Positions 5,319 through 63,982 of a stretch of DNA of 64,000 nucleotides are shown piece by piece (position 1 is the first letter of the stretch; each line of letters opens with the position of its first letter). The DNA is taken from assembly GCF_054482525.1 (NCBI RefSeq), contig NZ_CM137006.1, one strand, 5' to 3'. The position numbers were made by a program, and so were the translations under genes. The notes under the pieces were generated by a model. It was given only the letters and a program-made list of their open reading frames with translations. It ran no database searches and was not told the origin of the DNA.

Positions 5319-5447
5319 TGGTACTCCTTAATGATGCGCTATTTTACAGATGACGAACAAAGTGTTGGTTTTCATGCCTGATAAACCCAGTTCATCAGGC
5401 AATTTTACCATTGTCAGCTGTCTCTGTTTAAATCGACTATTTTGCGA

Positions 5448-7355
5448 TCAGCCACCATTTTTTAACGCTTCAAGATACTCCCAGCGTTCAAAGGCTTGCT
5501 CCAGCTCCTGCTCTGCAGCAGCCATATCGGCGAGCACTTTTTGTGTCTGCTCATGGGGCTGACTGAAGAAGGAAGCATCCGCCACCTGCGTCTGTAGGGC
5601 TTCCAGCTTCGCCTCCAGATCTTCGAGCAATTGCGGTAGCTGCTCCAGTTCGCGCTGCAATTTATAGCTTAGTTTGCTACTGCTGCGTTTTACAGTTTCT
5701 GCTTTTGGCGCGGCGGCTTCTTCGATTTTTTTCACCGCAGGCTGTTTGAGCGCCACATACTGTTCTTGCTGACCACGGGCATCATGATAACCGCCGACAT
5801 AACGACCAATTTTACCGCCGCCTTCGAAGATCCAGCATTCTGTAACGGTGTTATCGACAAACTGACGATCGTGGCTCACCAGCAATACCGTGCCCTGGTA
5901 GCTGTCGATCAGTTCTTCCAGCAGTTCCAGCGTTTCAACATCAAGATCGTTGGTCGGTTCGTCAAGAATCAATAAGTTGCTTGGTTTGAGGAACAAACGC
6001 GCCAACAACAATCGGTTACGCTCACCGCCAGAAAGCGCACGTACCGGCGTCATCGCCCGTTTCGGATGGAACAGGAAGTCCTGCAAATAGCCCAAAACAT
6101 GGCGTGGCTTGCCGTTAACCATCACCTCTTGCTTACCTTCAGCAAGGTTATCCATCACCGTTTTATCGGGATCCAGTTCCGCACGGTGCTGATCGAAATA
6201 AGCCACTTCCAGTTTGGTGCCAACGTGAATACGCCCGCTGTCCGCCTGAAGCTGACCGAGCATCAGTTTCAGCAGCGTGGTTTTGCCGCATCCATTCGGA
6301 CCAATCAGGGCAATTTTGTCGCCACGTAGAACCTGGGCAGAAAAATCTTTCACCAGTTGCTTACCGTCGACCTGGTAGCAAACGTCTTCCATTTCGAAAA
6401 CGATCTTACCGGAGCGGCTGGCCTCTTCCACCTGCATCTTTGCGGTACCCATCACTTCGCGACGTTCGCCACGCTCGCGACGCATTGCTTTCAGGGCGCG
6501 TACGCGGCCTTCATTACGGGTACGGCGTGCTTTGATCCCCTGGCGGATCCACACCTCTTCCTGCGCCAGTTTGCGATCGAACTCGGCATTTTGTAGTTCT
6601 TCCACGCGCAGGGCTTCTTCTTTTTCCAGCAGGTACTGGTCGTAATTCCCTGGATAGGTCACAAGCTTGCCGCGATCGAGATCAACAATGCGCGTCGCCA
6701 TATTGCGGATAAACGAACGGTCGTGGGAGATGAAAATTATCGTCCCATTGAAGGTTTTAAGGAATCCTTCCAGCCAGTCGATGGTTTCGATATCCAGGTG
6801 GTTAGTCGGTTCGTCGAGCAGCAATACGCGCGGATTGCTCACCAGCGCGCGTCCTAATGCCGCTTTACGCAACCAGCCGCCAGAAAGCGACGACAGCGCA
6901 ACATTAGGATCTAACCCCAGTTGCGCCAGCACTTCGTTAATGCGGTTTTCCAGCTGCCACAGGTTGTGGTGATCCAGCTGTTCCTGAACCTTCGCCAGTT
7001 CGTTGAGATTTTTCTCGCTCGGGTCGTTCATCACCAGGCGCGAAATATCGTGATAGCGTTTCAGGTATTCCGCTTGTTCTTCAATGCCTTCGGCAACGAA
7101 ATCATAAACACTCCCCTCAACGTTACGCGGCGGATCCTGTTGCAGACGAGCGACAATCAAATCTTGCTCGTAAATAATGCGACCGTCATCCAGCCCTTGT
7201 TCACGGTTGAGGATTTTCATTAACGTCGATTTGCCTGCGCCGTTGCGGCCCACCAGACAAACACGTTCGTTATCTTCGATATGCAGTTCTGCGTTATCGA
7301 GAAGCGGCGCGTCGCTGAACGACAGCCATGCGCCATGCATACTGATTAATGACAT
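5448..7355 (-). CDS. uup: ABC-F family ATPase Uup
   Basis: ORF track, 635 aa; two Walker A motifs (GRNGAGKST, GPNGCGKTT) and a C-terminal coiled-coil tail. Confidence 0.95.
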   Translation of the reverse strand: MSLISMHGAWLSFSDAPLLDNAELHIEDNERVCLVGRNGAGKSTLMKILNREQGLDDGRIIYEQDLIVARLQQDPPRNVEGSVYDFVAEGIEEQAEYLKRYHDISRLVMNDPSEKNLNELAKVQEQLDHHNLWQLENRINEVLAQLGLDPNVALSSLSGGWLRKAALGRALVSNPRVLLLDEPTNHLDIETIDWLEGFLKTFNGTIIFISHDRSFIRNMATRIVDLDRGKLVTYPGNYDQYLLEKEEALRVEELQNAEFDRKLAQEEVWIRQGIKARRTRNEGRVRALKAMRRERGERREVMGTAKMQVEEASRSGKIVFEMEDVCYQVDGKQLVKDFSAQVLRGDKIALIGPNGCGKTTLLKLMLGQLQADSGRIHVGTKLEVAYFDQHRAELDPDKTVMDNLAEGKQEVMVNGKPRHVLGYLQDFLFHPKRAMTPVRALSGGERNRLLLARLFLKPSNLLILDEPTNDLDVETLELLEELIDSYQGTVLLVSHDRQFVDNTVTECWIFEGGGKIGRYVGGYHDARGQQEQYVALKQPAVKKIEEAAAPKAETVKRSSSKLSYKLQRELEQLPQLLEDLEAKLEALQTQVADASFFSQPHEQTQKVLADMAAAEQELEQAFERWEYLEALKNGG

Positions 7356-7366
7356 TACTATTCCTT

Positions 7367-9475
7367 TCAGGCTACGGTAATCAGCCAGCAGTTGTGGATC
7401 TGGCGGTTACGGGCGAAATCCTGGGAGAGCGTTTTTTGCGTAATTTCTTGTGCTTTCAGTCCCAGTTTTGCCAGGCCGTCGAGATCCATACGGAAGCCAC
7501 GTTTGTTGTTCGAGAACATGATCGTCCCACCTGCACGCAGCAGACGTTTCAGATCTTTCATCAGCGCCAGATGATCGCGCTGAACATCAAACGCATCTTC
7601 CATTCGTTTTGAGTTAGAGAAGGTTGGCGGATCGATAAAGATCAGATCGAACTGTTCATTTGCCTCACGCAGCCACGCCAGGCAATCGGCCTGAATCAGG
7701 CGATGCGCACGCCCGGTTAGGCCATTCAGACGCAGGTTGCGTTCTGCCCACTCCAGATAAGTACGCGACATATCCACGGTGGTGGTGCTGCGTGCACCGC
7801 CTAATCCCGCGTGCACGGTGGCGCTGCCGGTATAAGAGAACAGGTTGAGGAAATCTTTGCCTTTGCTCATCTGACCGAGCATACGACGGGCGATACGGTG
7901 ATCGAGGAACAGACCGGTATCGAGGTAATCCGTCAGGTTCACCCACAAGTGAGCGTTATATTCGGTAACTTCGAGAAACTCGCCCTTCTCGCCCAGTTTC
8001 TGGTACTGATTTTTGCCCTTCTGGCGTTCACGGGTTTTCAGCACCAGTTTGTTTGGCGCAATCCCCAATACCGAAATGGTTGCAGCGATAATATCGAACA
8101 GACGCTGACGCGCTTTGTGCGCATCAATAGTTTTTGGCGGCGCATACTCCTGCACCACCACCCAATCGGCGTAGCGGTCAACTGCAACGTTGTATTCCGG
8201 TAGATCGGCGTCGTACAGGCGGTAGCATTCAATGCCTTCCTGACGCGCCCACTTCTCGAATTTTTTGAGGTTCTTACGCAGACGGTTGGCGTAGTCTTCT
8301 GCCACCATTGCCGGTTTGCTGTCTGGTGTGCTTTCGGCAACGTGGTAATTTTTCTGCACGCAGTCTAATGGACCGTTTTTCGCTTTGTACTGTTTGTCTG
8401 CACGCAACTGCAGGCAACTTAACAGATCCGGCGAGGCACTGAATAAAGAGAGATTCCAGCCACCGAACTGGTTTTTCATGATTCGGCCCAGCAGACTATG
8501 CAGCGCAATCAGCGCCGGTTCGCTGTCCAGACGTTCACCGTATGGCGGGTTGCTCAACACTGTACCGTACGGCCCTTTCGGCAGCGGATTGGTCAGTTGC
8601 GCGACATCTTTCACCTCAAAGGTGATCAGTTCACCAATCCCCGCAAGACGGGCGTTAGTGCGCGCACGTTGAATCACCCGTGCGTCGCTGTCCGAACCGT
8701 AAAAATGAGAGCTATACTCAGCCAGGCCTTTACGGGCGCGAGTTTGCGCTTCCGCTTTCACTTCCTGCCAGATAGCTTCATCATGCTGCGCCCAGCCGCT
8801 AAAGCCCCAACGCCCACGGTGCAAGCCTGGTGCGCGATCGGTCGCCAGCATCGCCGCTTCAATCAGCAACGTACCGGAACCACACATCGGATCGAGCAGC
8901 GGTGTTCCTGGCTGCCAGCCGGATCGCATCACAATCGCGGCTGCCAGGGTTTCTTTGATCGGCGCAATACCAGCACGATCGCGATAGCCACGCAGATGTA
9001 AACCATCACCACTGAGATCAAGGGCGATACTGGCGGTTTCTTTATGCAGCCAGACGTTAACGCGGATATCCGGCGCATCGCGATCAACATTTGGACGCGG
9101 CAGATTTTTCCGCGTGAAAGCATCGACAATCGCGTCTTTCACTTTCATCGCACCGTACTGACTGTTGCGGATGGTGTCATTCAAACCACTGAAGTGGACA
9201 GCGAAGGTCGCGCCAGGATTAAACATCTCTGTCCAGTTGATCGCCTGAACACCGAGATAGAGGTCTAAATCGCTGTAAACCTTACACTCGCCCAGCGGCA
9301 ACATAATACGCGAGGCCAGGCGGCTCCACATCAGGCTCTGGTAAACAAGCCGTGTGTCGCCCTTGAAATGGACCCCACCCTGAACCACCTGGCATTCAAC
9401 GGCCCCCAGGTTTTCCAGTTCAGTTTTTAACAGCTCTTCCAGCCCACGGGCCGTACTGGCAAACAGAGAATTCAT
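7367..9475 (-). CDS. rlmL: Bifunctional 23S rRNA m2G2445/m7G2069 methyltransferase RlmKL
   Basis: ORF track, 702 aa; two SAM-methyltransferase regions; conserved position next to uup. Confidence 0.95.
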
Positions 9476-9718
9476 ATCGTCACTTTTACTCTAAGAGCCT
9501 ACCGCAGTAGGCGTAATTGTTGCAGTCAGTCTGGACATGGACAGCGCGGAGAAACCGGAGCGTACACAAGTACGTGAGGATTTCGAGCACTTCCCTGGGC
9601 CAAACTGACAAATAAAATAGCCTAATGGGACAGGCGCTAAGAAAATTGTTGCGCATTATAGCTAATAAGCGCGTCATGTCATAAAGTTGAGGGCTTATTT
9701 TCATTTGAGGACCGCACC

Positions 9719-10828
9719 GTGGCGACATTAACCCGGCTTTTTATTCATCCTGTTAAATCGATGCGCGGCATTGGTCTTACACATGCTCTGGCAGATGTCA
9801 GTGGTCTGGCCTTCGATCGCATCTTTATGATCACGGAACCTGACGGTACGTTTATTACCGCTCGCCAGTTTCCGCAAATGGTACGGTTTACTCCTTCACC
9901 TGTGCATGATGGCTTGCATCTCACCGCACCAGATGGCAGTAGCGCATATGTTCGTTTTGCTGATTTCGCCACACAAGACGCACCAACCGAAGTTTGGGGC
10001 ACACATTTTACCGCGCGAATTGCGCCAGACGCGATCAACAAATGGCTAAGTGGATATTTCTCCCGCGAAGTGCAGTTGCGCTGGGTGGGGCCACAAATGA
10101 CGCGGCGCGTGAAACGCCACAACACTGTACCCCTGTCATTTGCTGATGGCTATCCTTACCTTCTTGCTAACGAAGCCTCGTTACGTGATCTCCAACAACG
10201 TTGTCCGGCCAGTGTAAAAATGGAGCAATTCCGCCCTAATCTGGTGGTTTCCGGCGCGTCAGCCTGGGAAGAAGATAGCTGGAAAGTGATTCGTATTGGT
10301 GATGTGGTGTTTGATGTGGTTAAACCTTGTAGCCGCTGTATTTTCACCACCGTCAGCCCAGAAAAAGGGCAAAAACATCCGGCAGGCGAACCATTAAAAA
10401 CATTGCAATCTTTCCGCACTGCCCAGGATAACGGCGATGTCGATTTTGGCCAGAATTTAATTGCCCGTAATAGCGGCGTAATTCGCGTTGGCGATGAGGT
10501 GGAAATTCTGGCAACGGCTCCGGCTAAAATTTACGGCGCAGCCGCCGCTGATGATACCGTCAACATCACGCAACAACCGGACGCAAATGTAGATATTGAC
10601 TGGCAGGGACAGGCATTTCGTGGAAATAACCAGCAGGTGTTGCTGGAGCAATTAGAAAATCAGGGAATTCGTATCCCTTATTCTTGCCGCGCGGGCATTT
10701 GTGGAAGTTGCCGTGTTCAGCTTTTAGAAGGCGAAGTCACGCCGCTGAAAAAATCAGCAATGGGCGATGATGGCACCATTCTTTGCTGTAGCTGTGTACC
10801 GAAGACTGCGCTTAAGCTGACGCGTTAG
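9719..10828 (+). CDS. ycbX: MOSC-domain protein with C-terminal 2Fe-2S ferredoxin domain, YcbX
   Basis: ORF track, 369 aa, GTG start; C-terminal CRAGICGSC motif typical of plant-type ferredoxin. Confidence 0.9.
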
Positions 10829-11540: not shown

Positions 11541-12551
11541 TTAGATATGGGTAACGATTTCTTTAATCAGCGGCGGACCTTTAAAAATAAAACCAGAATA
11601 AATTTGCACCAGTGAGGCCCCCGCAGCAATCTTTTCACGCGCAGCGATAACCGAGTCAATGCCGCCAACACCGATGATCGGTAAGCGACCGTTTAATTCC
11701 TGTGACAAGCGGCGAATAATTTCTGTGCTTTTTAACTGAAGCGGACGACCACTTAAGCCACCGGTTTGATCGCAATTTTTCATTCCCTGAACCAGAGAAC
11801 GATCGAGAGTGGTATTGGTTGCAATAACGCCATCAATATTATGGCGAACTAAACTATCGGCAACCTGGATCAATTCTTCTTCAGAAAGATCCGGCGCGAT
11901 CTTCACTGCGATCGGCACATATTTATGGTGCATCGCTTGCAAATCATTTTGCTTATTTTTAATCGCGGTTAAGAGATCATCCAGCGCTTCGCCATATTGC
12001 AGTGTGCGTAGTCCTGGGGTATTCGGCGATGAAATATTGATGGCGATATATCCCGCATAAGCATAGATTTTTTCCATACAAATCAGATAGTCATCTTTAC
12101 CCTGCTCCACCGGCGTATCTTTATTTTTGCCGATGTTAATACCCAGGACGCCATCATAATGGGCTTTTTTTACGTTCTCTACGAGGTTATCAACGCCAAG
12201 ATTATTAAAGCCCATACGGTTGATCAAACCTTCGGCATCTACCAGACGAAAGAGACGCGGCTTGTCATTACCTGGCTGTGGACGTGGCGTGACGGTACCG
12301 ATCTCGATCGATCCAAATCCCATCGCGCCTAACGCGTCAATGCACTCCCCGTCTTTATCAAGACCGGCTGCCAGACCAAGCGGATTTTTAAACGTCAGGC
12401 CCATGCAGTTAACAGGTTTCGCAGGCACTTTCTGCCGCACCAGTGCTTCAAACGGCGTTCCGGTAATGCGGCGTAATTGCTGAAAAGTAAACTCATGAGC
12501 GCGCTCTGGATCGAGCTGGAAAAGGGCTTTACGAACGAAGGGGTAGTACAT
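11541..12551 (-). CDS. pyrD: Dihydroorotate dehydrogenase (quinone) PyrD (336 aa)
   Basis: ORF-track 11541..12578 trimmed to the conserved start [11 protein letters not shown]; class 2 DHODH sequence. Confidence 0.95.
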
Positions 12552-12637
12552 GAACTCTCCTGGATTCCCGGTGTGCAAACCGGGGGCGTATTATGTGCGA
12601 GTTCGGACCAAAAGGGAATTGACCTGTGGCAAAAAAA

Positions 12638-24045: not shown

Positions 24046-24262
24046 TATGCCGGATGTGGCGCACAAAACCAGCATTTCCAACGGACTTGTGGGCCTGATA
24101 AGACGCGTCAAGCGTCGCATCAGGCAGTTGGACCCGGTTGCCGGATGCGCGTAAACGCCTTATCAGGAAGTTGGGCACGGCTGCCGGATGCGGCGTGAAC
24201 GCCTTATCCAGCCTACAAAACCAGCATTTTCAACGGACTTGTAGGCCTGATAAGACGCGTCA
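24046..24262. repeat. BIME: cluster of REP palindromic units between ssuB and pepN
   Basis: Several REP-like palindromes (GCCGGATGCGGCGTGAACGCCTTATCCAGCCTAC, GGCCTGATAAGACGCGTCAAGCGTCGCATCAGGC) separated by a repeated linker AAAACCAGCATTT(C/T)CAACGGACTTGT; the last unit is interrupted by the IS. Confidence 0.85.
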
Positions 24263-63912: not shown

Positions 63913-63982
63913 TAGCCTACGCAATGTAGGCTTAATGATTCGTCTGAGTTATATTACGGGGCGTTTTTTTAATGCCCCGCTT
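63913..63982 (+). terminator. Hairpin structures downstream of ycaO (putative terminator)
   Basis: Stem AGCCTAC/GTAGGCT at 63913-63934 and GC stem CGGGGC/GCCCCG around a T-rich tract at 63957-63982; geometry not classical. Confidence 0.35.

Follow-up and report, generated by a model that had tools for sequence, protein, structure and literature searches.

The window, as we call the whole stretch of 64,000 nucleotides that was analysed, is the uup-rlmL-ycbX-zapC-pyrD ... ycaO region of Escherichia coli, in reversed orientation with respect to MG1655. Two of its intergenic regions hold the short hairpins described in the initial annotation, and both were confirmed: hairpin 1, GCCTAC-CGCA-GTAGGC, at 9497–9512 (+), between the divergent genes rlmL and ycbX, and hairpin 2, (A)GCCTAC-GCAAT-GTAGGC(T), at 63914–63932 (+), in the 3' region of ycaO, 9 nt past its stop codon and about 390 bp upstream of focA. 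They are the only matches to GCCTAC-N3-7-GTAGGC in the window. Rfam also places a PyrD leader at 12546–12619 (−).

Hairpin 1 belongs to a 143-bp MITE, in whose left terminal inverted repeat it forms the internal palindrome. The MITE occupies 9495–9637, reads as an imperfect palindrome, GAGCCTACCGCAGTAGGCG...GCCTAATGGGACAGGCGC, and was delimited by the alignment of filled and empty sites, by a 45-copy alignment of its family and by nhmmer. The family profile matches the element of the window with 143.7 bits (E = 1.4e-43). A target-site duplication TAA lies on the left at 9492–9494 and on the right at 9638–9640, as seen when the filled site is aligned with the empty allele, in which there is a single TAA within ACTCTAAGAAAA. 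The right terminal inverted repeat contains a mirror-image hairpin at 9620–9635 (−), which reads GCCTGTCCCATTAGGC on the minus strand and then TATTTTATTT. Between both ends, at 9539–9590, there is a conserved apical core, GGACAGCGCGGAGAAACCGGAGCGTAC-ACAA-GTACGTGAGGATTTCGAGCAC, near-invariant in the 45 copies and with an apical stem-loop at 9560–9575. Hairpin 1 is, in short, the tip of a mobile repeat and not a stand-alone unit.

The occupancy of this site was studied by megablast of positions 9380–9820 of the window against about 5,425 complete E. coli genomes. The whole query was covered in 4,190 of the 5,425 (about 77%, filled), whereas the other genomes (about 1,235, or about 23%) gave a two-piece match covering 68% of the query, which is the pattern of an empty site. 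Part of the query recurs, besides, at other places in each E. coli genome. The empty allele of strain LWY24, which was aligned with the window and with K-12, has a clean 97-bp spacer, and the difference between the window and this allele is exactly 146 bp, that is, the 143 bp of the element plus one TAA. In Salmonella and in Klebsiella aerogenes the rlmL-ycbX spacer measures 98 bp, the element is absent, and the alignment with the empty E. coli allele, including its target ACTCTAAGAAAA, is base for base; the target, in the form ACKCTAAGAAAA or ACTTAAAGAAAA, and the promoter hexamers are kept in both spacers. As Salmonella and Klebsiella are empty, the empty state is the ancestral one. E. albertii carries the insertion at the identical site, with the same derived ACCGCA as the copy of the window. 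As E. albertii and E. coli have it in common, the insertion is old in the genus Escherichia, where it is the derived state; E. coli is polymorphic for it to this day. The alleles without the element in E. coli could be retained ancestral ones or, since E. albertii is also filled, precise losses, a type of deletion that is favoured by 6-bp direct repeats, here CTAAGA, around a palindrome. The same spacer in Citrobacter koseri (locus L083, around 680–740) has a different insertion, of 56 bp, at TATA in the otherwise conserved putative −10 region of rlmL.

The true ends of the element are given by 45 copies at other loci and in other genera, which start with GAGCCTATCCCAGTAGGCG... and finish with ...GCCTAATGGGATAGGCTC. 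With these ends, the apparent CTAAG direct repeat of the window is resolved into the TAA duplication plus the terminal G and C of the element. The ends are terminal inverted repeats, in which GAGCCTATCCCAGTAGGC... pairs with ...GCCTAATGGGATAGGCTC, and the end-to-end helix is paired in 89% of the alignment cells, compared to 74–83% for the local terminal stems (74% for the local stem of hairpin 1). Covariation was found as well: both sides change in 11 of the 14 end-to-end pairs, a score that was reached by none of 500 shuffles. Hairpin 1 and its mirror image form in the minimum-energy fold of single-stranded DNA calculated with DNA parameters, and as RNA the two strands fold into one long imperfect hairpin of −54 and −55.3 kcal/mol, with z-scores of −4.9 and −5.4. 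The consensus of hairpin 1 in the family is GCCTAT CCCA GTAGGC; the perfect sixth base pair of the window is a substitution particular to this copy and to its E. albertii orthologue.

Several general properties of MITEs are present: besides its inverted repeats and its clean empty site, the element is small (143 bp), is non-coding without a conserved ORF, and has dispersed copies. Identical 3-nt flanks were found at 18 of the 39 distinct insertion sites of the family when naive boundaries were used, every one of them TTA or TAA, compared to about 0.6 expected by chance according to our own estimate, and several more sites gain matching flanks once the boundary is shifted by 1 nt. Because of its inverted repeats, its target duplication and its polymorphism, we think that the element would be mobilized in trans, a cut-and-paste transposase supplied from elsewhere inserting it and duplicating the TAA target. 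Neither BLAST nor nhmmer found a second copy of the family in the window, and 732 kb of loci contained no larger element or parent IS with the family ends and no solo terminal repeats. Two minor profile matches in the window were inspected and treated as chance, one inside uup (6298–6341, E = 0.015) and one in the uup-pqiA spacer (5385–5417, E = 1), where there is a local hairpin. The latter spacer contains, at 5385–5433 (−), an 8-bp-stem hairpin, TGCCTGAT-11 nt-ATCAGGCA, whose resemblance to the right end of the family is faint and not significant.

The family is well represented in E. coli, with a median of 5 copies and a maximum of 8 per genome, and 6 in K-12 strains. The copy between qseG and qseE (glrK) (L002, 3006–3149) is fixed in E. 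coli; another is placed between the Phe (pheM) attenuator and the start codon of pheS (L077, 743–886), and a third between ucpA and cysP (L078, 758–901), in regions that occur in nearly all the E. coli genomes searched. These copies and that of the window locus are unannotated in the RefSeq records examined. The spread of the family was followed by a scan with an 18-mer of the core over one genome per species. Full-length copies with 80–97% identity exist in more than 20 genera of Enterobacterales, among them Citrobacter, Klebsiella, Enterobacter, Pluralibacter, Trabulsiella, Leminorella, Dickeya, Pectobacterium, Erwinia, Rahnella and Buttiauxella; viral contigs gave 0 matches to the core 18-mer. 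The copies of Pluralibacter gergoviae (L007, 9328–9516; L009, 6522–6722) contain, immediately 3' of the apical core, an additional hairpin-forming segment of about 57 bp. Copies that hardly differ from the ucpA-cysP one of E. coli and from copies of Citrobacter appear in Methylobacterium mesophilicum (L029, a 234-bp contig) and in 'Chryseobacterium sp. 18061' (L068), and are probably due to enterobacterial contamination of these assemblies.

These data bear on whether hairpin 1 might be a stand-alone functional site, such as an operator or an attenuator of the divergent rlmL-ycbX control region, instead of mobile DNA. Its location between divergent genes would suit such a role, and a simple scan rates it as terminator-like (stem plus GTAATTGTTG). 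However, the segment is absent in about 23% of E. coli and in Salmonella and Klebsiella, although rlmL, ycbX and the promoter region are intact there, and the sequence of hairpin 1 recurs at unrelated loci, at the same position inside the element. We consider such a role very improbable.

The suspicion that the 80-aa ORF at 9486–9728 (−) is an artefact was borne out. This spurious ORF has no match in Pfam, and its frame is broken by a stop in the E. albertii orthologue and has stops in 30 of the 45 family copies; 143 of its 243 bases are mobile element, which around 23% of the E. coli genomes do not have. In favour of a true gene for a small protein, born with the insertion, are the open frame of the window and of K-12 and the argument of Delihas 2007 (PMC2759123) that repeat units of enterobacteria can contribute ORFs. 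Nevertheless, besides lacking a Pfam match and an uninterrupted frame in relatives, the ORF is unannotated in the RefSeq records examined, and its start would fall inside the start region of ycbX, on the opposite strand, so that we find a gene here scarcely credible.

Regarding known repeats, the 143-bp family is probably the RSA (BEE95) repeat of E. coli K-12, which has about 152 bp and 6 copies in MG1655. Both are intergenic dispersed repeats of enterobacteria with a length of around 140–150 bp, and K-12 strains have the family in 6 places; the difference is that we measure 143 bp between the target duplications, versus the 152 bp of RSA. Hairpin 1 is accounted for by an element of a known kind, most likely the RSA repeat, which had been catalogued before. 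The name RSA appears in the title of Bachellier & Hofnung 1996, as cited in PMC3751351. Literature searching gave no usable account of the RSA sequence or of the core sequence.

ERIC, also called IRU (RU-1), is another imperfect palindrome of enterobacteria, with 127 bp, whose consensus was taken from Delihas 2007 (PMC2759123). Both families are MITE-like, imperfectly palindromic and intergenic in Enterobacterales, and both have variants with internal insertions. Their apical cores are alike, GGAGCTTACAT-AAGTAAGTGA in ERIC and GGAGCGTACACGTAGTACGTGA in the 143-bp family, with an apex GGAGCkTACA..AGTAmGTGA, although only about 21 nt are similar. In contrast, the arms are unrelated, the lengths are unequal, and the termini are TATACCC...GGGTATA in ERIC versus GAGCCTATCCC...GGGATAGGCTC in the 143-bp family. 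Membership in ERIC was rejected because the termini differ and the family HMM detects neither ERIC consensus. In Citrobacter amalonaticus (L025, around 1850–2063) there is a chimera. Its left half, as far as the apical hairpin, is that of the 143-bp family, and its right half is that of ERIC and holds an internal insert of about 70 bp.

The only Rfam match over the element is to sX9 (RF02228), at 9510–9575 (−), and it stays below threshold, with 25.8 bits compared to a gathering score of 44 (E = 0.006–0.014). Elsewhere, the copy of Yersinia aleksiciae reaches 44.6 bits, above the gathering score, and several other copies reach 33–35 bits, whereas the Chlorobiaceae copies discussed below gave no sX9 match at E ≤ 0.05. 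On the minus strand, the model covers the apical hairpin and continues through one of the core arms, but sX9 is described as a transcript and not as a repeat. Three of four E. coli copies lie in the sX9 sense relative to transcription, which is too few to conclude. sX9 is a Xanthomonas sRNA that is among the commonest annotated 'sRNAs' across bacterial genomes (PMC9029176), a frequency that is to be expected if it is a repeat. In its main text, the source paper of sX9 does not discuss the repeat.

Hairpin 2, AGCCTAC GCAAT GTAGGCT, has a different history. Downstream of it, at 63957–63979 (+), RNA folding gives a terminator-like GC-rich hairpin, CGGGGCGUU...AAUGCCCCG, followed by CUUUACAU, and a hairpin at this terminator-like position is kept in Salmonella and other genera. 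The segment downstream of ycaO is single-copy and is present in 5,420 of the 5,425 E. coli genomes. In E. coli KO11FL (NC_017660.1) the ycaO 3' query matches 36 places, consistent with the amplified insertion engineered at pfl in this strain. The 3' arm, GTAGGYTTA, is common to E. coli, Salmonella and GCA_026341455 in the alignment, whereas the 5' arm, AGCCTAC, is found only in E. coli and is absent from the other genera compared. In Salmonella, the same ancestral bases take part in another hairpin, GGGTA-GGTT-TACCC, and the whole hairpin 2 segment is missing from two other genomes. The family HMM finds no match with nhmmer at the ycaO site, even if the isolated 140-nt segment is searched, and six orthologous ycaO-focA spacers, that of Salmonella included, contain neither a family copy nor a BIME. 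Most likely, hairpin 2 arose in place, is specific to the E. coli lineage and is unrelated to hairpin 1.

The initial annotation took both hairpins as relatives of each other, a relationship that was not borne out by the statistics of the window. GCCTAC occurs 17 times, compared to 19.2 expected, which is chance frequency. There are 118 perfect hairpins with 6-bp stems and loops of 3–7 nt, among which two pairs have a common stem, namely hairpins 1 and 2 and a GGCGGC pair. First-order Markov simulations gave a mean of 1.65 such pairs, with at least one pair in 77% of the simulated windows. In the 732 kb of loci, with family copies excluded, GCCTA-N4-8-TAGGC was found 3 times versus 3.5 expected, so the motif outside the family does not exceed chance. 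The sixth base pair that completes the match in hairpin 1 is, as said above, particular to this copy. The 6-bp stem is most likely common to the two hairpins by chance. The proposal that they are small independent structural elements is consequently split, since it fails for hairpin 1, which is the tip of the 143-bp MITE, and probably stands for hairpin 2, which has no match to the family profile.

The similarity of hairpin 2 to the right end of the family might still suggest homology, hairpin 2 being a solo terminal relic of a MITE copy whose remainder was deleted. Its site reads AAATAGCCTA-CGCAATG-TAGGCT-TAA and the right end of the family reads AAATAGCCTA-ATGGGA-TAGGCT-C-TTA/TAA, with 16 matching bases over the flanks and a TAA just after, and BLAST matched the left 15 nt of the site with E = 1.1. 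It is because of this resemblance of the flank that the relic keeps some probability. The lack of any match to the family HMM speaks against it, as do the chance frequency of the motif outside family copies and the absence of a full-length copy from the orthologous spacers of Salmonella and four other enterobacterial genomes. Moreover, the 3' arm is ancestral, being present in genomes that do not have the 5' arm. We regard such a relic as unlikely.

E. coli REPs end in GGCCTAC, and the hairpins had also been considered as possible REP remnants. In such a case, two inverted REPs of a BIME would have left their tails as the GCCTAC/GTAGGC stems. The hexamer and the capacity to form small hairpins are indeed common to REPs and to both hairpins, and a true REP pair of the window has the arrangement ...CCAGCCTAC-24 nt-GTAGGCCTGATAAG. 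The flank on the right side of hairpin 2, GTAGGCTTAATGAT, agrees with GTAGGCCTGATAAG in 10 of 14 positions, and a REP tail pair of Citrobacter fits GCCTA..TAGGC. However, unlike REPs, the 143-bp element is bounded by terminal inverted repeats and by a 3-bp duplication, and hairpin 1 is continuous with this element, with the consensus end GAGCCTATCCCAGTAGGCGTAATTG and the TAA duplication, so the REP claim does not hold for it. The consensus REP stem, GCCGGATGCGGCG...CGCCTTATCCGGCCTAC, was sought next to both hairpins; GCCGGATGCGGCG is nowhere in the 143-bp element and no REP body lies beside either hairpin, in contrast to the true REPs of the window at 24100–24255, which carry the canonical stem. 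Nor is there any E. coli genome with a BIME at the site of hairpin 2. We think that a REP origin of the two hairpins is quite improbable; for hairpin 2 only, a degenerate tail-to-tail REP origin is possible as a minority reading. The Rfam naRNA4 (REP325) match at 24092–24255 adjoins the REP tail-to-tail pair AGCCTAC-24 nt-GTAGGCCTGATAAG.

Taking all this together, we assign a probability of roughly 80% to the reading in which hairpin 1 belongs to a MITE inserted in the leader of rlmL, while hairpin 2 is unrelated to it and has the stem in common by chance.

The apical core of the element extends beyond the enterobacteria. A core of about 52 nt, CGGAGAAACCGGAGCGTAC-loop-GTACGTGAGGATTTCGAGYAC, is present with 85–95% identity in repeats of Chlorobiaceae, Silvimonas, Yersinia and Serratia that have different arms. 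The core 18-mer matches around a dozen Chlorobiaceae genomes, with several matches in some of them, and one Silvimonas genome (Chlorobiaceae loci L006, L012, L013, L015–L017, L030, L043, L046 and L052; Silvimonas locus L045). The palindromic arms of these copies are unrelated to those of the E. coli element and represent two subfamilies or more. A rough stop-to-stop ORF scan suggests that the copies are situated between long ORFs, and the one of locus L030 (Chlorobiaceae) has TTA on both flanks. The two GGA triplets of the core are invariant and stay unpaired, as internal loops, when the plus-strand consensus is folded; sX9 matches the complementary strand, which is rich in CUCC. MITEs usually conserve their ends while the interior drifts. 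Here the core is kept while the ends vary, the reverse of the usual pattern, which suggests that the core is a selected module. Thus, there might be a modular superfamily across phyla, comprising the RSA-like repeats, ERIC, the Xanthomonas sX9 repeats and at least two families of Chlorobiaceae and Betaproteobacteria, with a common core and lineage-specific arms and termini; we put this forward as a tentative idea, which is more doubtful than probable. If it were true, the core would be the selected part, either as a cis-acting module for propagation or as an RNA or single-stranded DNA hairpin recognized by a conserved host factor.

Coming back to rlmL, a sigma-70-like promoter, ATGACA, 16 nt, TATAAT, is predicted at 9655–9682 (−), just upstream of the MITE and facing rlmL, with 11 of 12 consensus positions. 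Both hexamers are identical or one base off in the spacers of Salmonella, Klebsiella and empty-site E. coli. From its position, transcription of rlmL would start near 9648. About 10 nt separate this predicted start from the element, and 19 nt separate the element from the ATG at 9475, so that the predicted leader grows from about 27 nt in the empty allele to about 173 nt in the filled one. As the element is located between the promoter and the start codon, the rlmL mRNA of filled strains probably carries all of it, as a strongly folding leader of about −55 kcal/mol according to the model. Such a folded leader could alter the stability or the translation of the rlmL mRNA. ERIC elements have been reported to affect mRNA stability or translation, and by analogy an effect of this kind is plausible here.

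As first written, the finding matters very little, and a spurious ORF is removed. Instead of two related mini-hairpins there is the end of a well-behaved MITE and a hairpin without relation to it, so the picture is largely ordinary. Two further points are of modest practical value. The core found across phyla is a side observation that is perhaps worth a separate look, as it ties together an E. coli repeat, ERIC, an Rfam "sRNA" and Chlorobiaceae repeats, and, if undescribed, it could give a handle on how repeats persist. For E. coli itself, around one quarter of the species is without the 146-bp structured insert that K-12 has between the rlmL promoter and the ribosome-binding site. Therefore, filled and empty strains constitute a natural experiment on a leader MITE and the expression of a ribosomal RNA methyltransferase.
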